The notes below the pieces were generated by a model, which saw nothing but the letters and a program-made list of their open reading frames with translations, searched no databases and was not told the origin of the DNA. Of a DNA stretch of 64,000 nucleotides, positions 4,371-58,415 are shown one piece after another (positions within the stretch are counted from its first letter, which is position 1; each line of letters starts with the position of its first letter). This DNA is from a phage, in the sequence record PQ724394.1; one strand, written 5' to 3'. The translations under genes were made by a program, and so were the position numbers.

Positions 4371-6494
4371 CTACATTTTGAATTTATTTGATAAAGAAGA
4401 GATGTCCAAAGATGCAGCAAGGATTTCCATAGCCTCATTACTTTCTGAAACAGATTCTGAAACTAGGAATTCTTTAAACCCATTCATCAATTTAACTTCA
4501 CCGGTTTCCATCAGATGGTCGCCATCGTAAACGGATTCGCTGAGTTCTGAAGGAGATGTCACTGTAGCTTCCATAAGGTATTTGTGAGATACTCTATCAT
4601 TCATAGCAAAAGCCGCTACTTTATCAACCTTCAACAATAACCCGCGCGGAAGGATAATTTCCGCTTCTTCGGCATATTCTGTAAGGTCGCCAGGAGCGAT
4701 AACTTTAACTGCTTCAGCACCTCGAATAACCATACCAATTTCAGCAATCCTGTCTGCAGGGCCTTCAGGTGCAATTGGATTACCAAACTCGTCTTCTTCC
4801 CATTCTACCTCTTCGTCATCGACTTCACCTACGTCAGATGAACTACCACTGGCTAATTTAAACAACTCATCAGCGGAGGATAAAGAACCTTCATCACCGA
4901 CAAAAACTGCTTGGTTGTCGAGGGCCATATAATTTTTACCAAATTCGCCAAAGATATTAGGCTTTAATGAAGCGGACACAAAGTTCTTAAAGTAAAAGGT
5001 TTTGTTATCAATATTATGGCGCAGAATTTTGTATGGTAAATCCTGACCACGATACAAAATAGTACCCTTAGGAAGTTTAATACCCTTGGTAAATGCCGAG
5101 TCTAAATCCTTAATCAATTTAATAGCTGTTGTATTGTTTTCGGATTCAGGTTTACCTAAAAGGAATAAGTTCATAGGAGCATATTCAGCCGCACAATATT
5201 CAATAATGGCATTACTTTCGTCTTTGGTCAAGCCCTTAGGTTTAATGAGCTCGCCTGAATAAGCATATGCATCGCTAATAGAATCGTTAATCAGTTTATA
5301 AACGGCTTCCATAGCGAAAGCAATTCGAGATGCTTTCTCTGAAGGAGACCCCTGAAAACGGGCACTCAGGTTATTAACAATTCTCTTAATAATATCCAGA
5401 CTATTGGTAGTATTGATTTGAGAAAGACCGCTTAAAAGTCTATCGACTTCCGTATTAAAAAATGCCATATTATTAGAGTAAATTTCAAACCCTTGTTTAT
5501 CTCTATTAGCATAATTTAGTTTAAATTTACTATCAGTCATTAAAGCGTGCGTGAGAGCAATGGTGTATCTAAAGTTGGCAAGGTCCTCACTCTTAGATTT
5601 AAACTGAGAGGCCTGTCGCATTTTAGTAATAGAACCTTTTTTAAAGTTCTGGCTAATCTGCTCAATACCTTCGTTCTCAGGGCCTTCGGCCGAGTGAACA
5701 GGGACAGAAGCTTCAAACTCGTTATAAATCTGCAATTCTTTAGGTGATAAAGTTTCGGGTTCGGCAGTAGAATACTGCGCCGCTGCAGCCATACGACGGG
5801 AAATCTTAGTACGAGAAATAACAGCCTTATCGGTACGTTTCTCTTCAACCTGTGCAATAGATGCCGCTACGGCTTCTACTTTACTTACGGCCTGGCCGGT
5901 TTTCTTAGAAACATAAACTTCACCGACTTTAGACTCAACCTTGGTATAAAGGTCTGCATCAATTTCAGGCATACCCTTGATATCTTCGATATTAGAACCA
6001 CGACGTACTAAAAGAACGTAGGTATGTTTACCACTAAACTGGAACATATCATCGACAACTTTAAACTTACCACCGGTACGTGCCATCACCAAACGAGCTA
6101 ATACACGCTGAACGGTAGGACCCTTACCTTTCATTTTCTTGGTAGGGAAACGGAACAAAACTGCATCCATTTTAAGTTTGTTTACTTGTTCGTATACGGT
6201 ATCGAAAATAGTATTCAGTGTACCAAGTGGGTCAGAACCAAGCCCACCTTTGAGTTCAGCCGGAGCACCCTTGCTAGACAAACTCATTAAAATAATATGA
6301 ACGTATTTGTCGCCAGGCTTAACCATTTTAATAGCGTCTCCTTGAGACGCATAAGATACCATACGAGCAACCAGGTTATCATTACCTGGTGCTTGGATAG
6401 AGAAAATCTGTGGGATACCTGAGCCTGGCTTAAGATTTGTTACTGGATAGTTTTTAGCTGAATCACTATCAAAAACTTCGTTTAAATTTTCCAT
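4371..6494 (-). CDS. alt: Alt-type ADP-ribosyltransferase, paralog A (707 aa)
   Basis: N-terminal region conserved with the neighbouring paralog (LVARMVSYAS.GDAIK...LKGGLG); C-terminal R (YRGQ), S-x-S (FVSASL) and E-x-E (EEAEIILPRGL) motifs; position next to DNA ligase as T4 alt. Confidence 0.85.
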   Translation of the reverse strand: MENLNEVFDSDSAKNYPVTNLKPGSGIPQIFSIQAPGNDNLVARMVSYASQGDAIKMVKPGDKYVHIILMSLSSKGAPAELKGGLGSDPLGTLNTIFDTVYEQVNKLKMDAVLFRFPTKKMKGKGPTVQRVLARLVMARTGGKFKVVDDMFQFSGKHTYVLLVRRGSNIEDIKGMPEIDADLYTKVESKVGEVYVSKKTGQAVSKVEAVAASIAQVEEKRTDKAVISRTKISRRMAAAAQYSTAEPETLSPKELQIYNEFEASVPVHSAEGPENEGIEQISQNFKKGSITKMRQASQFKSKSEDLANFRYTIALTHALMTDSKFKLNYANRDKQGFEIYSNNMAFFNTEVDRLLSGLSQINTTNSLDIIKRIVNNLSARFQGSPSEKASRIAFAMEAVYKLINDSISDAYAYSGELIKPKGLTKDESNAIIEYCAAEYAPMNLFLLGKPESENNTTAIKLIKDLDSAFTKGIKLPKGTILYRGQDLPYKILRHNIDNKTFYFKNFVSASLKPNIFGEFGKNYMALDNQAVFVGDEGSLSSADELFKLASGSSSDVGEVDDEEVEWEEDEFGNPIAPEGPADRIAEIGMVIRGAEAVKVIAPGDLTEYAEEAEIILPRGLLLKVDKVAAFAMNDRVSHKYLMEATVTSPSELSESVYDGDHLMETGEVKLMNGFKEFLVSESVSESNEAMEILAASLDISSLSNKFKM

Positions 6495-6497
6495 TAT

Positions 6498-8582
6498 TTA
6501 CCCTTGGATGAATTTTTCTGGTATGTCATAGAGGTCTATGCATGAAGCCAAAAGTGGCAGTACGTCAAACCGTGTAGATTTAACAAATGAATCAAAAGAT
6601 ACAGGGCTTTCGGAAGTATCGAAGTCATCTTGGTATACAACCAATTCACCAGTTTCCATTAGTACGTCACCATCATACACCACAGATTCTTGAAGCTCAT
6701 CTGTGGTCATAACTTCGGCTTGAACGAGTTTTGTATTACTAGATGTTGTTCCGTCATTATTAGAGGCATCGGTTATTTTATTAACTTTGACCATCAATCC
6801 ACGCGGTAGAATAACTTCAGCTTCTGTTGCTATTCCGAGACTTCCTGGATATACAACATTAACTTTATGGGCTCCATCAATTGCCCATCCTATTTGAACT
6901 TTAACGTAATCAGGGTTTTCTTTATACGCTCTTATTTCATTAGGATTAATGGTTATTCCTTCTTCATTTTTATCGACTGTCAATTCATTGCGAACTTCCG
7001 GTTCTAAAAGACCGACACCCGCGTGTGTAACACCAAAACGACCAAAAATGATAGGAGTCAGTGAAGTAGATACAAAATTTCTAAAATAAAATACCTTATT
7101 TTTAACTAGTGCTTCGTATATAGGAGCAGTCATACTTTGAGCACGATAAACTGTAATGCCTTCTGGTATACGGTCACCATTTTCAAAAGCTGAATCAAGA
7201 TTATTAACAGCAGATTCAATAGACCTTTCATTCATTACATCATAGTTCTGAGGATTATAACGTCCTAAAAGAAGATTATTGATGTCGGTATAACCTGAGC
7301 CGCAGTATTCTCTGATGCCGCGCTTTTGTGATGGGGTGTATTTAGAACCATCGCGAGCAATAGTAATATCGACCATAATACCACCGCCTACACCAGCAAA
7401 ACTATATACACGTTTTTTAATGAACTTGGTCTTGGCTGCTTTCCACTTGGACTCGGTTAATTCATTCCAGACGTCGTCAGGCTGACCTTTACGAGTTTTG
7501 TTATGTATAGCCAGCCATTCGCCTTTATATTCTTCAAAAACTGTATTAATAACAGAGGCATACTTTTCTAGAGCTTTAACAGATGTCAAAGGTTCGTTTT
7601 TGATGGCTGTAAGAATTCTCTCTTTAATTTTCTCTTGGATTTCACCTATACCGTGAAGAGGAAACATTTTATATTCATAATGCAACTCTTCAGCAGTGCC
7701 TTCAGCTACTATATTAGCAACTTTATTTTTAGCCGCAGGAGAATTGTTATTGGTGACCATTTCCTGTGCCTCAGGGATTAATGGAGCTGTTGCAGGTTTA
7801 TTAAAATCTGCTGCAGTAGCTTCATATTTCTTAAACAGTTCACTTTCATTACGATAAGATTCTAAAGACTGACTTGCTGCAATAGCGCGACGAGAAATCT
7901 TAGTCTTGGTTATAACCATTTTATCAGTGCGACGTTCTTCAACTTTAGCAATACTGCCGGCAATAGCAGTTTCTTTAGTAACCTGCACACCTTCTTTTTT
8001 AGAAATATAAACTTCACCAACATCAGAATCTACCTTAGTATATAATTCGGCATTAATTCCTGGCATACCTTTGATATCTTCAATATCAGCTTGTTTACGA
8101 ACTACTAGGATATAAGTATGTTTACCGGTAAATTGGTACATGGCTGGAACTACTTTAAAACGTCCACCGGTTTTCTGTGCTACCAAACGTTGGATAATCC
8201 GTTGGACGATAGGTCCTTGTCCTTTCATTTTCTTGGTTGGAAAACGGAACATCACAGCATCCATACGAAGCTTTTTAACTTGTTCGAATACTACGTCGAA
8301 AATGGTATTAATAGCATCAATAGGAGTAGGGCCTAAGCCGCCTTTAAGTTCGGCTGGAGAACCTTTAGCTGAAAGGCTCATAAGGATGACGTGGGCGTAT
8401 TTATCACCTAATTTAACCTGTTTAATAGCATCGCCTTCAGAGGCATAAGATACCATACGGGCCACTAATTGGGATTCGGCGTCGCCAATCTTCCAAATCT
8501 GCGGTACTTTAAGTTTTGGGTTTAAGTTTACAGTAGGCAGGGTGCCTTCAGACTCAAACACTTCATTTAATTGTTCGGTCAT
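6498..8582 (-). CDS. alt: Alt-type ADP-ribosyltransferase, paralog B (694 aa)
   Basis: Same architecture as paralog A; YRAQ, FVSTSL, EAEVILPRGL motifs; AAAGAGGA RBS upstream. Confidence 0.85.
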   Translation of the reverse strand: MTEQLNEVFESEGTLPTVNLNPKLKVPQIWKIGDAESQLVARMVSYASEGDAIKQVKLGDKYAHVILMSLSAKGSPAELKGGLGPTPIDAINTIFDVVFEQVKKLRMDAVMFRFPTKKMKGQGPIVQRIIQRLVAQKTGGRFKVVPAMYQFTGKHTYILVVRKQADIEDIKGMPGINAELYTKVDSDVGEVYISKKEGVQVTKETAIAGSIAKVEERRTDKMVITKTKISRRAIAASQSLESYRNESELFKKYEATAADFNKPATAPLIPEAQEMVTNNNSPAAKNKVANIVAEGTAEELHYEYKMFPLHGIGEIQEKIKERILTAIKNEPLTSVKALEKYASVINTVFEEYKGEWLAIHNKTRKGQPDDVWNELTESKWKAAKTKFIKKRVYSFAGVGGGIMVDITIARDGSKYTPSQKRGIREYCGSGYTDINNLLLGRYNPQNYDVMNERSIESAVNNLDSAFENGDRIPEGITVYRAQSMTAPIYEALVKNKVFYFRNFVSTSLTPIIFGRFGVTHAGVGLLEPEVRNELTVDKNEEGITINPNEIRAYKENPDYVKVQIGWAIDGAHKVNVVYPGSLGIATEAEVILPRGLMVKVNKITDASNNDGTTSSNTKLVQAEVMTTDELQESVVYDGDVLMETGELVVYQDDFDTSESPVSFDSFVKSTRFDVLPLLASCIDLYDIPEKFIQG

Positions 8583-12394: not shown

Positions 12395-12760
12395 TTAGAT
12401 ATCAAATTCATTCAGAACTACATCAAAGATTGCTTCCAGGTGTTCAGGTTTAGCACGGTTGCTCAGGATGTGACGAATCCAGGTTTTAACCAGAAGCTTA
12501 CGATTATCACCGTTCCAGCAAGGATGGGTACCTAAATCACGTTGACGGAAATCATCATCCAAAGCGATTTTAAAAGTAGAACCTTCCATAGTGATTGAAA
12601 CCGTGATACCATTTTCAAAGCGCATATAAACGTAGTTAGGAGTCATGCACTGTTCGATTTCGCACACTGTGCTGTTGTTGTGTTTCCACAGGCAAATAAC
12701 TTCAGAAGAACCAGCAATACCGTTAGAAACATATTTACGTTCGAAGTTGATGTAGTTCAT
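12395..12760 (-). CDS. Hypothetical protein (121 aa)
   Basis: ORF with GGAGA RBS; own early-promoter cassette upstream. Confidence 0.55.
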   Translation of the reverse strand: MNYINFERKYVSNGIAGSSEVICLWKHNNSTVCEIEQCMTPNYVYMRFENGITVSITMEGSTFKIALDDDFRQRDLGTHPCWNGDNRKLLVKTWIRHILSNRAKPEHLEAIFDVVLNEFDI

Positions 12761-12796
12761 TTTATTCTCCAGTTTGTTTTCGTATTATTTGGTACA
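12758..12796. repeat. 39-nt direct repeat copy 1 (5' leader/RBS/start of gene 12395-12760)
   Basis: Identical to 13201-13239. Confidence 0.8.
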
Positions 12797-12830
12797 GGTC
12801 TATAATAACACAACCTGTACCAAAGTAAAC
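12791..12830 (-). promoter_or_regulatory. Early-promoter stem-loop cassette (GTTTAC -35, 17 nt, TATTAT -10; stem GGTACAGG/CCTGTACC)
   Basis: Read on minus strand: GTTTAC at 12830-12825, TATTAT at 12807-12802; -10 sits in loop of an 8-bp inverted repeat. Confidence 0.55.
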
Positions 12831-12834
12831 CGTT

Positions 12835-13203
12835 TTATGCAACTTTAATCCAATTATCTAAATTTAATTCACCTTTGGCTTTCATTTTTTCGATCAGGTC
12901 ATCTGCAGTTATACGACCATTTTGATACCATGTAACATCTTCAGAATAACCAGTTTCTTCATCTTCATAGGTCTTACAACGAATCTTACCGGTTATGATA
13001 GTTTTCAGTTCGTAGGTATCACCGGTAAAAAAGTTTGTTACCAAAATTTTCCAAGAGAAGTCATCAGAAGGACCTTCAGGAGTCATACAACCTACAAATT
13101 CAAATTGTTCTTTGTACAAGCGCCATTGCATCTCTTTAGTTTCAATAGCTTTATAACCGTCGTGGTCTTTACATTTGATATATGAGTTAAGATTGATTTT
13201 CAT
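12835..13203 (-). CDS. Hypothetical protein (122 aa)
   Basis: ORF with GGAGA RBS; own promoter cassette. Confidence 0.55.
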   Translation of the reverse strand: MKINLNSYIKCKDHDGYKAIETKEMQWRLYKEQFEFVGCMTPEGPSDDFSWKILVTNFFTGDTYELKTIITGKIRCKTYEDEETGYSEDVTWYQNGRITADDLIEKMKAKGELNLDNWIKVA

Positions 13204-13239
13204 TTTATTCTCCAGTTTGTTTTCGTATTATTTGGTACA
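13201..13239. repeat. 39-nt direct repeat copy 2 (5' leader/RBS/start of gene 12835-13203)
   Basis: Identical to 12758-12796. Confidence 0.8.
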
Positions 13240-13244
13240 TGTCT

Positions 13245-13273
13245 ATAGTATCATGCCTACCGGAGATGTATAC
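13245..13273 (-). promoter_or_regulatory. Early-promoter-like cassette (GTATAC -35 variant, 17 nt, TACTAT -10)
   Basis: Family member of the repeated cassette; -35 is degenerate. Confidence 0.4.
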
Positions 13274-13299
13274 CCTTTTTTTAAGATTTAGAAACAAAA

Positions 13300-13321
13300 A
13301 TGGGACTCCGAAGAGTCCCAT
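13300..13321 (-). terminator. Rho-independent terminator (UUCG hairpin + U-run) after small ORF 13325-13486
   Basis: ATGGGACTC-cgaa-GAGTCCCAT; on minus transcript followed by UUUUUGUUUC. Confidence 0.65.
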
Positions 13322-13324
13322 AAC

Positions 13325-13486
13325 TTATGCAATAACTTTACCGAAGCAAGCAGCATCTGCACGCAATACTGCACGAGCACGAGCTTGAAGCTTATCAACT
13401 ACCTGATTGATACGCTTGTTAGACGCACGCTTGTAACCAGCGCGTTTAGAGGTTCCGTCAACTACTTTAACTTCTTTCTTAGCCAT
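13325..13486 (-). CDS. Small basic protein (53 aa), not in ORF track
   Basis: ATG at 13486 to TAA at 13325; MAKKEVKVVDGTSKRAGYKRASNKRINQVVDKLQARARAVLRADAACFGKVIA; immediately followed by terminator. RBS weak. Confidence 0.35.
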   Translation of the reverse strand: MAKKEVKVVDGTSKRAGYKRASNKRINQVVDKLQARARAVLRADAACFGKVIA

Positions 13487-13839
13487 TTTTAAATCTCTTA
13501 AATTAGGATGCAGGACTTATTGGCATTGCCTGCGCAAGCCCTCAAGGGGAACATAGGTTTTAGATATTTAACGACAGGATAACCGTAAACCTCGTCATCA
13601 TAGCTCTTATCTGTTGCACACCGTTAGCTTAAAGGTTCCGGGTTCGATTTCTCGAGGATAAGATATATACTGATGGATATATAGGCCTTGAGGCGTACTC
13701 CCGATTGGCCATCACCTCGGGGTAGCATGCACTTGCCGCTATAAAATAACATTCAAGAGGTACACCGTAAAACTGCCGGGGTCTTAAAACTATAATGATT
13801 CGCAAATCATTAATCAGACAGTTCGACGGCTCCTCGATT

Positions 13840-14088
13840 TTACTTCAGGGTAATAATAAAATGACGTACTGCTTTACGAGCTGCTGAAGCCAAAGGCTTA
13901 GCATATTTCAGTTCATCTTTTGCTTCCAATTCAGCGGCCAGAGTAGCCTGAGCAGGATTAAGATGTTTGAAATAACGCAGGATTTCCAGTGCTTCGGCTT
14001 CAACATCAATAGATGCGCCGTAGTTTTCGTGACCGTTGTTCCAAGCGTTGCGTTGCAGTTCAAGAGCGTGATTCAGATGTTTGTTCAT
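13840..14088 (-). CDS. rIII: Lysis inhibition accessory protein rIII-like (82 aa from internal Met)
   Basis: Start taken at the internal Met (MNKHLNHALELQ..) to give 82 aa, T4 rIII length; position next to gene 31. Confidence 0.65.
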   Translation of the reverse strand: MNKHLNHALELQRNAWNNGHENYGASIDVEAEALEILRYFKHLNPAQATLAAELEAKDELKYAKPLASAARKAVRHFIITLK

Positions 14089-18460: not shown

Positions 18461-18918
18461 ACACCAAGCTCCTTATAAAGTTCTTCACGGCAGGTTTTAA
18501 GGATTTTACCAGTTTCATAAGCCGCACTTTCAGAAACATCACCAAGTGTAGCAGCAGCTTGCATTTGGCCATGGCGCTTAGCCGCATATTCAAAACTTTT
18601 TACCAGCTCACGAATACGTTCTTTTTCTTCGTGAAGTGATTGGTTTTCTTTATAGCACGCCGTAACATCTAAGATTGAATTCCACACATCAGAAGGAATA
18701 GGCTCGGACAATTTCAACACTCGGCTCGGGAAATCATTCCATGGGGCATAGTATTCAACTTCTGTAATAACTCCACCTTTACATTCTGTAATAAAAAATC
18801 GAGCTTTACCTTCCAAAGGTGTTTTACGGCAAGAACCAATTCGGGCCAGCTTTTGGAAGAATTCGTCTTTACACTTCATGATATTATTAGCGTTCTCAAC
18901 ATACCATAATATTTTCAT
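18457..18918 (-). CDS. Hypothetical protein (153 aa from internal ATG)
   Basis: Track start (18954) lies inside the -10 of the promoter cassette; ATG at 18918 has GAGGAA RBS. Confidence 0.5.
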
Positions 18919-28055: not shown

Positions 28056-28283
28056 TTATTTTTGAATTAAGCCCATATAAAATTCAGCGTCTTCAGCATG
28101 CATACCATCGCAATATTCATCAGCCATAAAGCGGGTAAGGTCTTCAAGAGGACCTTGAACTTCAATTTGCATACTAAAGAATTGCGTATCTTTAATATAG
28201 GTCATAACTAAAGAAGGATAACGATTACGGATAACTTCGTAAGTGTATTCAAAATCAACGATATCAATATTAACTTTAGCCAT
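28056..28283 (-). CDS. Hypothetical protein (75 aa)
   Basis: ORF with ATGAGGAAAATAAA RBS and canonical cassette upstream. Confidence 0.5.
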
Positions 28284-28307
28284 TTTATTTTCCTCATGTA
28301 GTTGATA

Positions 28308-32730: not shown

Positions 32731-35700
32731 ATGGCTGATATTTTAAAACCTGCATTCCGTGCTACATCCGGACTCGATGCTGCGGGCGAGAAAGTTATCA
32801 ATGTTGCCAAAGCCGATTACAATGTACTAGATGATGGCGTCAACGTTGAATTCTTTATAGATGAGAACACCATCCAGGCGTACGACGAGACGCGCGGATA
32901 TAAGAAAGGGTTTGCAGTAATCCATGACCAACGTATTTGGGTTGCTCAACGTGATATCGCTGCACCAGCCGGAACTTTTGTACCTGGTTATTGGACCGCT
33001 ACCCGTACTGACCCTAAATGGATTACAGTAGCATCTCCTACGCGCCAGTTGGCTTCCGGTGAATATATTGCGGTGGACTCAGCTGCTAGCTTTACTACAT
33101 TTACTCTGCCTCCTAACCCTACTGATGGTGATACCATTGTAATCAAGGATATCGGCGGCCGTGTAGGTTATAATGAAATCAAGGTTCAATCTAGTTCTGC
33201 TCCAGGCGGTGGTAATCAGAAAATTGTTCGTTTTGGTAACCAGTTCTCTGAAACTCTGATAACCAAACCTTTTTCTTATAACATGCTTATCTTTGCTAAC
33301 CGCCTTTGGCATTTCTGGGAAGCCGGTAACGAAGAACGTGGTATTCGTGTAGAGCCTAACACTGCACAGTTCCAAGCTCAAGCGGGTGATAACGTTTTAC
33401 GTCGTTATACTTCAGGTGCAGTAATTAAATTTACTCTTCCTAAGTATGCGAACCAAGGTGACATGGTTAAAACCGTAGATATCGATGGTCTTGGAAGTAA
33501 GTTCCACTTAATCGTTGAAACCTTTGATGCATCATCTTCATTGGGTAAGCCTGGTCAGCATAGCATGGAATTCCGTACCTCTGGTGATGGGTTCTTTGTT
33601 TATAACTCTGTTGAAAAAGTGTGGTATGTTTGGGACGGCGACCGTCAAACTCGTCTGCGTGTTATTCGTGATGACGTAGAACTTTTGGCTAACGAAAGTA
33701 TTATTGTTTTTGGTCCTAATAACACAACTCCACAAACTATTAATATCACTTTACCTACTAACGTAGCACAAGGCGATACTATTAAAATCGCATTGAACTA
33801 TCTTCGTAAAGCACAGACAGTAAATATTAAGGCTGCTGTAGGTGATAAAATTGCTTCTTCGGTTCAATTGCTTCAGTTCCCTAAACGTTCCGAATATCCA
33901 CCAGATACTGAATGGGTGTTGAATGATGTATTGACCTTTAATGGCAATATAAGTTATACCCCGGTTATTGAACTGAGTTATATCGAAGACACCACTACAG
34001 GTGCTAAATATTGGGTTGTTGCCCAGAACGTTCCTACGGTAGAACGTGTGGATTCTAAGGATGATTTAACTCGTGCTCGTCTTGGTGTTATTGCCCTTGC
34101 GTCTCAGACCCAGGCTAACGTTGACCATGAAAATAATCCTGAAAAAGAACTTGCAATTACTCCTCAGACCTTAGCCAATCGTGTTGCCACTGAAACTCGT
34201 CGTGGTATTGCTCGTATTGCTACAACTGCTCAGGTAAACCAAGACACCACTTTCGCTTTCCAGGATGATTTGATTATTTCTCCTAAGAAATTAAACGAAC
34301 GTACTGCAACCGAAACTCGTCGTGGTGTAGCTGAAATTGCTACGCAACAGGAAACTGATGCTGGTGTTGACGATACCACCATTATTACTCCTAAGAAGCT
34401 ACAGACGCGCCAGGGCACTGAAAGTCTTTCAGGTATTGTAAAATATACCTCTACGGTAGATACCACTCCTGCGACTGCTAGGGACACTGTAGGTACTAAC
34501 GTTTATAATAAGAACGTAGGCAATTTGGTTATTTCTCCTAAAGCTTTAGACCAATATAAAGCTACTCAAGCCCAACAAGGTACGGTATATCTTTCTACCC
34601 AATCAGAAGTTAATACTGGACAATCTGCTAGTGGATTTGCTAACAGTGCGGTTTCTCCTGAAACGTTGCATGCTCGTGTGGCTCTTGATACTCGTACAGG
34701 GTTAATTGAAATTGCTACGCAACAGGAAACTGATACTGGAACTGATTATACTCGTGCGGTAACGCCTAAGACGTTAAATGATAGGAAAGCTACGGAAGGA
34801 TTGACTGGTATTGCTAGAATTGCAACCCAGGTAGAATTTGATGCAGGCACGTTAGATAATGTTATTTCAACTCCGTTGAAAATTAAAACAAGACTTAATG
34901 ATACTGCTAGAACTTCTGTCTCAGCAGCCAGCGGTTTGATTGAATCAGGAACCTTATGGAACCATTATACACTAGATATTAGAGAAGCAAATGAGACTCA
35001 ACGTGGTACCGCTCGTCTGGCTACCCAGACCGAAGTCAATGTTGGCACTGATGACAAAACCATCATCACTCCTTTGAAATTACACTCTAAAAAATCTACT
35101 GAAAGTTCTGAAGGTATTATTCGTGTTGCAACGAATACCGAAACCACTGCAGGAACTTCTAAAGTTCTGGCTGTAAGCCCTTCTGGTTTAAAATATGTAG
35201 TACAGTCCGAAACCACTTGGGAAGCTACTGCACTTCGTCGTGGATTTGTTAAATTGACCGAAGGTGCTTTGACTTACTCAGGAAATAAAGTTACCGGTTC
35301 CGGTGTTAAATTTAACTCAGGTACAGGCCTTTATGAGAATGACGATACTGTTCTGAATGCGGCCAACTATCCTAAAACAGGTTATGCGGTTTCATCTTAT
35401 GAGATGAATAAAACTTTGCAGAACTTTTTACCTATAAATGCTACGGCTGTGAACTCTGAGAAATTGGATGGTCTGGATTCACTTCAGTTCATTCGTAGAG
35501 ACGTCGACCAAACGGTTAATGGTTCTTTAACCCTGACCAAACAATTGAACCTGGCAGCCCCTCTGGTGTCTTCTAGTACTGCTACATTTACGGATGTTAC
35601 AGCTACTAATTCTACCTTTGGTACAGTGAATGTTGTTAACGGAACCAATAAATGGAAAATAACATCTCCATCTACTGGAACTACATTAACGATTGGCGAT

Positions 35701-49596: not shown

Positions 49597-49707
49597 TCAG
49601 AAGTTAAAGAATACACGTACATGGTCAATCATAAAAACTATTGGGAAAATGCTCAATACTACTAACAACACAAACATATTCCAAATTGCTTTAAGTAAGT
49701 TTTTCAT
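49597..49707 (-). CDS. Small hydrophobic peptide (36 aa), not in ORF track
   Basis: MKNLLKAIWNMFVLLVVLSIFPIVFMIDHVRVFFNF; GGAGATGATT RBS; directly downstream of cassette 49734-49762. Confidence 0.4.
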   Translation of the reverse strand: MKNLLKAIWNMFVLLVVLSIFPIVFMIDHVRVFFNF

Positions 49708-49987: not shown

Positions 49988-50254
49988 TCAAAATACAACC
50001 TCTTTTATCTCAATCAAACCACGGTGCAATGCAGTGCGGAGGTCGTAAAGAATATCTATACCATCAACATTATCCAGCTTGCCATCAATAAGCTTTTTTA
50101 AATCTTCCTTTGATGCAATCAACGGGCGAAGAAATTTACATTCAGAAAGAGATAACTCTGTAGTAACATTATCACCTTCACCTGATGCATCATACATAGC
50201 GGCAACAACCATACCCGTAACTTTGTGTTTAGCGTAATATAATTTGATATCCAT
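49988..50254 (-). CDS. Hypothetical protein (88 aa from internal ATG)
   Basis: ATG 50254 with GAGGAG RBS; track start lies in promoter cassette. Confidence 0.45.
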   Translation of the reverse strand: MDIKLYYAKHKVTGMVVAAMYDASGEGDNVTTELSLSECKFLRPLIASKEDLKKLIDGKLDNVDGIDILYDLRTALHRGLIEIKEVVF

Positions 50255-58131: not shown

Positions 58132-58342
58132 TGTAAGTTTCCTTCCAGAAGTCGGTGCCTTCAGCAGTGATTTCACGGAACACTGCATAGATAGGATTTT
58201 TATCACCTTGATTTTCGTATACATAAACCGACGATAAATGAGAAAACGTATCAGAATGTTCCTTTTGAACCACGATTAAATCAGGGTTGAACAGAACATC
58301 TTCAAATTCTTCACGAGTCGAGTTCACAGTAACTTTAGCCAT
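58124..58342 (-). CDS. Hypothetical protein (72 aa)
   Basis: ORF with cassette upstream. Confidence 0.45.
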   Translation of the reverse strand: MAKVTVNSTREEFEDVLFNPDLIVVQKEHSDTFSHLSSVYVYENQGDKNPIYAVFREITAEGTDFWKETYNA

Positions 58343-58415
58343 TTTATTTTCCTCTCATTTGTTGATAGGGTAATCTTATCACTACCCTACCGTATTGTAT
58401 ACTGTTTTTTAACCT

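Follow-up and report, generated by a model that had tools for sequence, protein, structure and literature searches.

T4-like phages carry promoter-early stem-loop (PeSL) cassettes (Arbiol et al. 2010, PMC2839356; Comeau et al. 2014, PMC4122927), which are composites of an AT-rich stretch, an early promoter and a stem-loop with a Shine-Dalgarno (SD) sequence and ATG at the 3' end. A single genome holds many of them, located in plastic early regions where they flank small genes of unknown function, and between close relatives the flanked ORF may be replaced or missing; in the RB49 ORF192/phi1 example, the deleted state keeps one chimeric cassette (PMC2839356). Similar elements have been described at the internal-protein (IP) loci of T-even coliphages (Repoila et al. 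1994, as described in PMC2839356), where T4-type early promoters and AT-rich, variable stem-loops bound variable small genes and, according to the same description, have been proposed as shuffling points. On a broader scale, Botstein-Campbell “linker” sequences, morons and integron cassettes all have conserved flanks that target the exchange of self-expressed modules to an acceptable intergenic site. The translation starts of early genes have a further relevant feature, the strong RegB/S1 cleavage consensus GG*AGRAYARAA, which was derived from T4 (Durand et al. 2006, as reported by Uzan and Miller 2010, PMC3014915). Secondary structure over the GGA protects against RegB.

We analyzed a 64,000-nt stretch of phage DNA (record PQ724394.1; the whole stretch is referred to here as the window) that belongs to a Dhakavirus, a JS98-like T4-type phage. 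In it, the adjacent genes 30.8 and 30.7, which are conserved early genes of T-even phages, each begin within one copy of an exact direct repeat (Table 1). There is a strong likelihood that this repeat makes up the downstream half of each of two neighboring early cassettes of the PeSL type, that gene conversion in Dhakavirus homogenized them, and that they also serve as linkers for the exchange and deletion of 30.8. The pair fits the published PeSL model and is no new kind of element, and in the searchable full-text literature we found no description of the 30.7/30.8 locus as such cassettes.

Table 1. Features of the 30.7/30.8 locus, in window coordinates.
Feature	Position	Strand	Description
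Gene 30.7	12395..12760	-	121 aa, MNYINFERKY...; Phage_T4_Gp30_7 (Pfam, E 1e-50); highly conserved
Repeat copy 1, gene 30.7	12756..12796	-	Last promoter-stem bases, predicted start-site region, 5'UTR, SD, ATG and 2 bases
GGAGAATAAAA, gene 30.7	12760..12770	-	SD and strong RegB/S1 consensus, 11/11; predicted unpaired in own-promoter transcript
Stem-loop round P30.7 -10 box	12791..12821	-	GGTACAGGT (13 nt including -10 box) ACCTGTACC; dG -16.4 kcal/mol, z -4.4
Copy 1 extension, -10 box region	12797..12810	-	11/14 identical to 13240-13253
P30.7 early promoter (predicted)	12802..12830	-	-35 GTTTAC (12830-12825), 17-nt spacer, -10 TATTAT (12807-12802), TG before
Gene 30.8	12835..13203	-	122 aa, allele A122, MKINLNSYIK...; Phage_30_8 (Pfam, E 7e-44); module between both cassettes
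Repeat copy 2, gene 30.8	13199..13239	-	Exact 41-nt repeat
GGAGAATAAAA, gene 30.8	13203..13213	-	SD and strong RegB/S1 consensus, 11/11; predicted unpaired in own-promoter transcript
Copy 2 extension, P30.8 -10 box region	13240..13253	-	Part of the 55 nt at 95%
P30.8 early promoter (predicted)	13245..13273	-	-35 GTATAC (13273-13268), 17-nt spacer, -10 TACTAT (13250-13245), A-rich upstream
TCTCCGGT in P30.8 spacer	13259..13266	-	Complementary to ACTGGAGA (13209-13216); from MFE structure
Intrinsic terminator after 30.9 (predicted)	13291..13321	-	ATGGGACTC-TTCG-GAGTCCCAT, then T-run; stem-loop component upstream of P30.8
Gene 30.9	13325..13486	-	53 aa; upstream neighbor; own terminator precedes P30.8

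On the coding (minus) strand, the exact 41-nt run reads TGTACCAAATAATACGAAAACAAACTGGAGAATAAAATGAA and occupies 12756-12796 and 13199-13239, with a spacing of 443 bp between the copies. An earlier, sequence-only reading had reported the identity of 12758-12796 with 13201-13239, which was borne out in a slightly longer run. Each copy contains the predicted start-site region together with the complete 5'UTR, the SD sequence GGAGAATAAAA and ATGAA, so that GGAGAATAAAATG (SD and start codon) stands at the 3' end of both cassettes, and each lies downstream of its own predicted T4-type early promoter. The similarity extends as far as the -10 box, 12756-12810 and 13199-13253 being 95% identical over 55 nt (3 mismatches), and a 37-nt core, with up to 3 mismatches allowed, was found at exactly these two sites in the window. 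The same reading had held the downstream ORFs (MNYINFERKY.. and MKINLNSYIK..) to be unrelated, and they do belong to different Pfam families: there was no Pfam cross-hit between 30.7 and 30.8 even at E<=10, the sole BLASTP match covered 28 residues (E 0.04), and a profile-profile comparison (hhalign, with small alignments) gave a probability of 0.1%. Tandem paralogy, at which a CMTP motif at an equal position in the two proteins had hinted, was rejected on the Pfam and hhalign results. What the sequence-only reading missed was the consensus RegB site and the wider PeSL class. On its minus strand, the window has at least 16 early-promoter cassettes built in this way (repeat families D1, D4, D5 and D6), many with a stem round the -10 box or a pairing between the promoter spacer and the SD sequence.

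Each cassette at this locus would combine an early promoter of the T4 type and a stem-loop or terminator with a 5'UTR that is A-rich and unstructured, a GGAG SD sequence and the ATG, one cassette driving 30.8 and the other 30.7. This is the PeSL composite, repeated many times in the genome, as in the published cases, and the stem round the -10 box is in one of the commonest published positions. P30.7 fits the T4/PST-type PeSL consensus TTTACW-N17-TAYWAT (PMC4122927), and a consensus scan reads it as TTTACT-16-TATTAT with a TG. P30.8 has a non-consensus -35 box (GTATAC) and was missed by a generic sigma-70 scan; its Mosigvirus orthologue is GTTTAC-N17-TACTAT, and it is a member of early-promoter cassette repeat family D1/D5. 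Judged by these consensus matches, both are promoter-like. The promoter architecture 5' of 30.7 recurs in all genera examined, although its sequence is not identical among them.

The 9-bp stem at P30.7 showed covariation across genera, with 93% of positions paired and compensatory changes at 4 of the 9 pairs, against 25 to 48% for slid controls, in a test that covered ~4 to 5 independent lineages and took its structure from the window sequence. Orthologues of the stem fold at z -4 to -7. Because the stem lacks a U-run, a terminator role is not evident, and we consider such a function doubtful. Just upstream of P30.8, the predicted terminator of 30.9 forms a hairpin at 13321-13300. There are also differences from the described PeSL cassettes: the phage group is another one (Dhakavirus), the stems are not of the RB49 G-run/C-run type, the flanked genes are conserved T-even genes rather than ORFans, and the two cassettes resemble each other much more closely than family members usually do, being identical over 41 nt that take in the entire 5'UTR. 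The cassettes described here were recognized in sequence alone, and their promoter, terminator and mini-circle activities are putative. The IP loci, compared here by their description in PMC2839356, differ from 30.7/30.8 in locus and in genes.

Comparison with JS98 showed how sharply the module between the cassettes can change. The window is 96 to 100% identical to JS98 over 13305-13197, 30 to 60% identical over the 30.8 coding sequence, and 90 to 100% identical from 12838 onward, the two 30.8 alleles being only ~39% identical inside near-identical flanks. The breakpoints of the swap are ATGAAAA and the -35 box of P30.7, which resolves the crossover points at 30.7/30.8 to within a few bases. 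Both Dhakavirus alleles of 30.8 (A122 and B110) lie between the same identical leaders, and phage SF has a third allele between the same cassettes. Gene 30.8 has multiple alleles: sorted by identity, it was found at >=80% in 196 records, at 60 to 80% in 201 and below 60% in 639; 30.7 was found at >=80% identity in 714 records. Recombination in the cassettes would thus replace the 30.8 ORF with very different alleles, the cassettes acting as linkers because these direct repeats are long enough for T4-type recombination.

Recombination between the cassettes would delete 30.8 along with one of them, and the excised product would be a 443-bp circle that could reinsert. Relatives that lack one gene and retain a single cassette, for which the sequence-only reading had suggested a search, were found in two independent Mosigvirus lineages (JM10; AV109 and TuIa), both without 30.8. 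In JM10, the Mosigvirus P30.8 -35 box and spacer are joined to the -10 box and leader of 30.7, whereas in AV109 and TuIa the whole 30.8 cassette is joined to the 30.7 coding sequence at GGAGAATAAAATGAA, and the crossovers in both lineages lie inside cassette homology. A Dhakavirus source for the right flank of JM10 was rejected, since its 30.7 coding sequence is 94.8% identical to that of Mosigvirus and 92.9% identical to that of the window. We found no 30.8-deleted Dhakavirus, all 45 full-length matches to the predicted junction being two-piece alignments that retain 30.8, and the evidence for deletion therefore comes from a sister genus with less cassette homology.

The same reading had also considered a scar left by recombination when one of the two genes was inserted. 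In the form weighed here, 30.8 (or 30.7) would have arrived recently, as a circular ORF-plus-cassette module that entered a single resident cassette and left a copy on each side. The PeSL mini-circle model does predict an ORF between two cassettes (PMC2839356), and the genomes with one cassette and the clear exchange of 30.8 alleles are what such a history might leave. However, the gene order 30.9-30.8-30.7 is common to Tequatrovirus (T4), Mosigvirus, Gaprivervirus and Dhakavirus, which makes the two-cassette state ancestral and the state lacking 30.8 derived. Furthermore, an integration event would fuse one resident half with one incoming half, which in itself gives no identity between the copies, and the occurrence of both Dhakavirus alleles between the same leaders also speaks against this origin. 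We therefore regard a recent insertion as unlikely. Phage C6 and distant genera do have insertions, consisting of an extra ORF with its own hairpin and no promoter, in which the cassette was not used; these seem to represent events of another type.

The long leader identity is confined to Dhakavirus. We found a 75-nt version of the cassette in 46 records, all JS98-like and Dhakavirus-type, at a maximum of 2 places per genome, and the exact runs shared by the two Dhakavirus cassettes are 41 to 49 nt long, or 15 to 25 nt where one SNP interrupts them. In contrast, the cassette pairs of Mosigvirus, Gaprivervirus and Tequatrovirus/T4 share only 8 to 18 nt (GGAGAATAAAATGAA), and the central leaders are unrelated in these sister genera, in which both genes are present and identically ordered. 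Because the other genera lack it, identity in the remaining leader and the -10/+1 region cannot be a functional requirement. An exact match of 41 nt that includes the whole 5'UTR points to local gene conversion on top of family resemblance, that is, to nonreciprocal homologous recombination that would have taken place between cassettes 443 bp apart in the Dhakavirus lineage. Later point mutations would then have arisen in single copies, such as T>C in dhaeg, G>T in QL01/IME281 and the different SD region of VR5. For the -10/+1 part, conversion most likely ran from 30.7 to 30.8, since GACCTGTACC, the 3' arm of the stem, is kept at 30.7 in all genera and is without a proper partner at 30.8; the donor of the central leader segment was ambiguous when the leaders were scored by alignment to their orthologues. 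The proposal of a recent duplication or gene conversion thus stood in part: conversion is favored by the genus-limited identity, but it was not recent, as the identity spans the Dhakavirus radiation and private SNPs have accumulated in single copies.

The identity could instead have been kept by selection, with no recombination, if a trans-acting regulator specific to Dhakavirus (a protein or a small RNA) bound the whole 5'UTR and had to control 30.7 and 30.8 together. It covers exactly the transcribed leader and persists over 46 genomes, and the 3' part of the leader is clearly selected in all genera. Nevertheless, changes in one copy are tolerated in dhaeg, QL01/IME281 and VR5, the tract length varies among genomes (41 versus 49 nt), central leaders are unrelated in the sister genera that carry these genes, and it is implausible that point mutation alone converged on 41 identical bases. 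We consider this explanation very unlikely, though some selection for identical leaders is possible.

Homogenization and exchange at this locus are most simply explained by general homologous recombination on 40 to 55 bp of homology; here the locus differs from linkers, morons and integrons in that no dedicated integrase or attachment site is evident. It is highly improbable, in our view, that the stem round the -10 box is recognized by a dedicated phage recombination or processing factor, which would make the early cassettes an integron-like, site-directed exchange system and the identical Dhakavirus 5'UTRs either its footprint or the target of a lineage-specific post-transcriptional regulator. 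With general recombination between the cassettes, a single locus would display three outcomes (homogenization, allele replacement and gene deletion) and would illustrate, in compact natural form, the remodeling of early accessory genes in T4-type phages. The JS98 group and conserved genes of T-even phages would also be brought under the PeSL model.

Although this phage has an AT-rich genome with stereotyped SD/start contexts, chance likeness of AT-rich intergenic DNA, or an assembly or sequencing artifact, can be discarded with near certainty, because none of 100 dinucleotide-preserving shuffles matched the 37-nt core and the same cassette pair is present in 46 independently deposited phage genomes. 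A dispersed mobile element was likewise rejected, as the 75-nt cassette occurs at this locus only, in no more than two places per genome, and the 37-nt core has just its two sites in the window. Annotators of T4-like genomes should expect repeats of this kind, together with ambiguity of assembly and alignment in their vicinity.

Because the repeat extends from the predicted start-site region as far as ATGAA, RNAs initiated at the two promoters would share a leader of ~35 nt. We found GGAGAATAAAA to be conserved in every genus examined, and the window holds 5 consensus RegB sites where 0.36 are expected. Of these, the three examined for position relative to a gene (12760, 13203 and 27997) lie immediately 5' of start codons, and those at 50254 and 60312 lie within early-cassette leaders. 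For the two own-promoter transcripts, the predicted folding energies of -5.0 and -1.1 kcal/mol do not surpass those of shuffled sequences, and the predicted centroid structures leave the SD sequence unpaired. These candidate sites resemble the strong RegB/S1 sites of T4 in that GGAGAATAAAA, in both leaders, matches the consensus, serves as the SD sequence of an early gene and has an A-rich, predicted unpaired context, whereas the consensus itself is T4-derived and the present sites, read from the DNA, are those of a Dhakavirus. A regB gene is annotated in JS98, a phage of the same genus; the window does not include the regB locus. We found no tRNA or known RNA family near the 30.7/30.8 locus. 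Both genes would receive an identical strong translation start very early in infection, and RegB cutting inside GGAG would shut 30.7 and 30.8 off together. The cassette model makes testable predictions, among them the 443-bp circle, RegB cleavage at the two identical sites and a deletion junction of specific sequence.

A possible anti-SD pairing, taken from a structure model, would join TCTCCGGT in the P30.8 spacer to ACTGGAGA and would exist only in read-through RNAs begun upstream. With z values of -1.3 to -2.2, this pairing is weak, and since Gaprivervirus and T4 do not conserve it, it may be incidental. Stronger, 11-bp spacer-SD repeats were observed at 49707 and 60312 in the window, as well as in the 30.7 cassettes of Karamvirus and Gelderlandvirus.

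By comparing the window with itself, we found that positions 12756-12796 and 13199-13239 are identical over 41 nt, slightly longer than the perfect 39-nt repeat claimed in a sequence-only reading, and that with three mismatches the similarity covers 55 nt at 95% (12756-12810 versus 13199-13253). The 37-nt core (≤3 mismatches) occurs at these two sites only in the window and in 0 of 100 dinucleotide-preserving shuffles. On the minus strand, each copy reads TGTACCAAATAATACGAAAACAAACTGGAGAATAAAATGAA, with its 3' end two bases inside an ORF. The ORFs are 30.7 and 30.8, conserved T4-type early genes in the gene 30-rIII block, where the gene order is rIII, 30.9, 30.8, 30.7, 30.6; over this region, identity to Escherichia phage dhaeg is 98% and to JS98-type phages (genus Dhakavirus, Tevenvirinae) 97%. 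The claim that the coding sequences following the repeats differ was borne out, with no detectable kinship between gp30.7 and gp30.8 by BLASTP (E 0.04, over 28 residues only), Pfam (no cross-match between the two families at E ≤ 10), or hhalign (0.1% probability). A sub-threshold Pfam match of gp30.8 residues 91-110 to the antitoxin VbhA (E 0.01; 16 bits, cut-off 25.9) is probably noise. Between 30.9 and rIII, ~350 nt (13487-13845) contain no convincing ORF and are partially conserved in T4; this stretch has no tRNA and no Rfam match at E ≤ 1, and it folds no better than shuffles (z −0.9).

Genes and predicted regulatory features around the two repeat copies
Feature	Position	Strand	Remarks
Gene 30.7 (MNYINFERKY...)	12395-12760	minus	Pfam Phage_T4_Gp30_7, E 1e-50
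30.8 stop codon	12837-12835	minus	upstream of P30.7
P30.7 −35 box GTTTAC	12830-12825	minus	17-nt spacer to −10
9-bp inverted repeat GGTACAGGT / ACCTGTACC	12821-12813 / 12799-12791	minus	flanks P30.7 −10 box
P30.7 −10 box TATTAT	12807-12802	minus	TG precedes; predicted promoter
Gene 30.8 (MKINLNSYIK...)	12835-13203	minus	Pfam Phage_30_8, E 7e-44
P30.8 −35 box GTATAC	13273-13268	minus	A-run precedes; 17 nt to −10
P30.8 −10 box TACTAT	13250-13245	minus	predicted promoter
Terminator hairpin after the 30.9 stop codon	13321-13291	minus	canonical; UUCG loop and T-run

Each copy forms part of a promoter-like cassette running from a predicted early promoter to a start codon. Because the 41-nt repeat begins at the final bases of the 3' arm of the P30.7 stem, approximately at the expected transcription start, it corresponds to the complete transcribed leader. 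The Mosigvirus orthologue of P30.8 is GTTTAC-17-TACTAT. The stem around the P30.7 −10 box (ΔG −16.4 kcal/mol, z −4.4) is kept in structure but not in sequence in distant genera, reading GGTGAGgGTCT/AGACtCTCACC in the Serratia phage CBH8, GGTGTAgGAGTA/TACTCtTACACC in the Klebsiella phage PWKp18, and TTGGGTGGT/ACCACCCAA in Roth01, and the orthologues each fold at z −4 to −7. In a 10-sequence alignment, which represents only ~4-5 independent lineages and takes its structure from the window sequence, 93% of cells were paired versus 25-48% with the partner slid, and 4 of 9 pairs had changes on both sides. The stem could arise only in read-through transcripts or in DNA that is single-stranded or cruciform, and, lacking a U-run, it does not obviously resemble an intrinsic terminator. 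Folding predictions give essentially no structure for the own-promoter transcripts of 30.7 and 30.8 (−5.0 and −1.1 kcal/mol, no better than shuffles). The SD region of both leaders, GGAGAATAAAA, matches the strong RegB/S1 cleavage site consensus GG*AGRAYARAA (PMC3014915) at 11 of 11 positions. Consensus RegB sites number 5 in the window versus 0.36 expected, and regB is annotated in JS98.

We compared the regions upstream of 30.7 and 30.8 across 18 related loci and T4. In Dhakavirus, the two leaders have exact runs of 41-49 nt in common (15-25 nt where one SNP breaks the run), whereas in Mosigvirus, Gaprivervirus, and Tequatrovirus (including T4) they share only 8-18 nt, essentially (CT)GGAGAATAAAATGAA, and their central parts are unrelated. 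A megablast search with the 75-nt 30.7 cassette matched only 46 records, all of them JS98-like Dhakavirus types, at most twice per genome. With the long identity limited to Dhakavirus and the short 3' motif present everywhere, we infer that the last 15-18 nt of the leader (SD/RegB site/start) are under selection in every genus compared and that the remaining identity is lineage-specific homogenization through gene conversion between cassettes 443 bp apart. Gene conversion of the regulatory cassette, as proposed in the sequence-only reading, thus fits, but its supposed recency does not: single-copy private SNPs in dhaeg, QL01/IME281, and VR5 and a longer tract (49 nt) in IME341 indicate that homogenization was old or recurrent and not one very recent event. 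The donor of the −10/+1 segment was probably the 30.7 cassette, because GACCTGTACC forms the 3' arm of a stem that all genera keep at 30.7, whereas at 30.8 it lacks a proper partner; the direction of conversion is ambiguous for the central leader segment.

In JS98 and several other Dhakaviruses, 30.8 is a 110-aa allele of the type found in T4, with only ~39% identity to the 122-aa allele of the window, a type also present in the Mosigvirus and Gaprivervirus representatives examined. Between the window and JS98, identity is 96-100% across the 30.8 cassette, falls to 30-60% between the bases just past ATGAAAA and the stop codon of 30.8, and returns to 90-100% at the P30.7 −35 box and beyond; phage SF has a third allele flanked by the same cassettes. 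Within the phage collection, 714 records carried 30.7 at ≥80% identity, and 30.8 fell into classes of ≥80% (196 records), 60-80% (201), and <60% (639). Relatives with one gene absent and a single cassette remaining, the comparison put forward with the original claim, do exist. In Mosigvirus JM10, 30.7 directly follows 30.9, 30.8 is absent, and the one cassette is chimeric, with the −35 box and spacer of the Mosigvirus P30.8 fused within the −10 box to the −10 box and leader of 30.7. AV109 and TuIa (2004 record) have another junction, at which an entire 30.8-type cassette is fused to the 30.7 coding sequence within GGAGAATAAAATGAA. JM10 and AV109/TuIa represent two independent losses of 30.8, both by crossovers within cassette homology; the Dhakavirus genomes searched yielded no 30.8 deletion. 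The cassettes are recombination endpoints, and the scar of a recent insertion, a further suggestion, does not fit.

Promoter-early stem-loop (PeSL) cassettes, a type defined in RB49/phi1, have also been described in PST/T4 and nt-1/KVP40; they recur in plastic regions, are linked to ORF insertion, deletion, and replacement, and have been modeled as sites at which an ORF is excised together with one chimeric cassette as a mini-circle (PMC2839356, PMC4122927). Judged by sequence, the 30.7/30.8 pair is of the PeSL type: every sequence-level defining feature was tested and found, and the contrast between KMB38 or the window, with 30.8, and JM10 or AV109 reproduces the topology of the RB49 ORF192/phi1 example. 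Unlike the published cases, however, these cassettes lie in another phage group, their stems are not G-run/C-run, the genes that they flank are conserved T-even genes and not ORFans, and their local identity is unusually complete, including the entire 5' UTR. A literature search of incomplete coverage found no account of this locus; the pair adds a case of a known cassette type and is of modest significance.

A mechanism consistent with two promoter-like cassettes, leader identity limited to one genus, breakpoints within cassettes, and a consensus RegB motif can be proposed from established T4 biology. Host sigma-70 RNA polymerase would transcribe from P30.7 and P30.8 immediately early, the open A-rich initiation region would permit efficient translation of both genes, and RegB cleavage within GGAG would shut them off coordinately. 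General homologous recombination of the phage, for which small (<50 bp) homology patches suffice according to PMC2839356 (citing Singer et al. 1982), would account for homogenization and exchange.

Scanning the entire window for repeats and for the cassette pattern, we found that the minus strand has at least 16 early-promoter cassettes of one design, (A-rich) GTTTAC - ~17 nt - (CATGA)TACTATAGACCTATCAA - GAGGAGAATAAAATG, among which those of 30.7 and 30.8 are the most similar pair. In many of them, inverted repeats enclose the −10 box (AGGTCTATAG/CTATAGACCT at 28283; also at 18918, 48762, and 58342). In others, the spacer pairs with the SD through 11-bp inverted repeats (ATCTCCATTAG/CTAATGGAGAT and TTCTCCTCATG/CATGAGGAGAA, at the minus-strand start codons 49707 and 60312, respectively), as it does upstream of 30.7 in the Karamvirus and Gelderlandvirus loci L026 and L028 (CTCCGTTGTAT/ATACAACGGAG, 11 bp, z −7.2); such pairing would sequester the SD in read-through transcripts only and not in own-promoter transcripts. 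A perfect 25-nt direct repeat (28271-28295 and 58330-58354; minus strand GAGGAAAATAAAATGGCTAAAGTTA) covers the SD, ATG, and first codons (MAKV) of two small early genes that differ from each other (75 and 72 aa), each with its own early-promoter cassette and a stem around the −10 box, and is a second, shorter instance of the 30.7/30.8 phenomenon.

The 30.7 locus is plastic at deeper evolutionary distance too. An ~160- to 175-aa ORF lies upstream of 30.7 in Winklervirus, Marfavirus, Karamvirus, a Klebsiella phage, and Gelderlandvirus (L024-L028); in Karamvirus and Gelderlandvirus, it stands between 30.8 and 30.7, after a short GC hairpin and an SD and without a promoter. Phages C6 (L021, 938-1294) and SP18 (L003, 2997-3347) have an extra ORF between the 30.9 terminator and P30.8, without the repeated cassette at its borders; that of C6 is GC-rich (~118 aa) and carries its own terminator hairpin but lacks a promoter to itself, and that of SP18 is annotated gp30.6A. 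In dhaeg, the closest relative of the window, two neighboring 30.4-like ORFs (L002, 1125-1562) share one VOG annotation, so this phage appears to carry a tandem duplication of gene 30.4. Elsewhere in the window, a 284-nt direct repeat (6088-6371 and 8182-8465; 71% identity, spacing 2094 nt) probably reflects paralogous coding sequence, and an in-frame-looking ~68-nt repeat present six times inside a large ORF region (34156-35132; families D3/D8) probably belongs to an internally repeated long tail-fiber gene 34.
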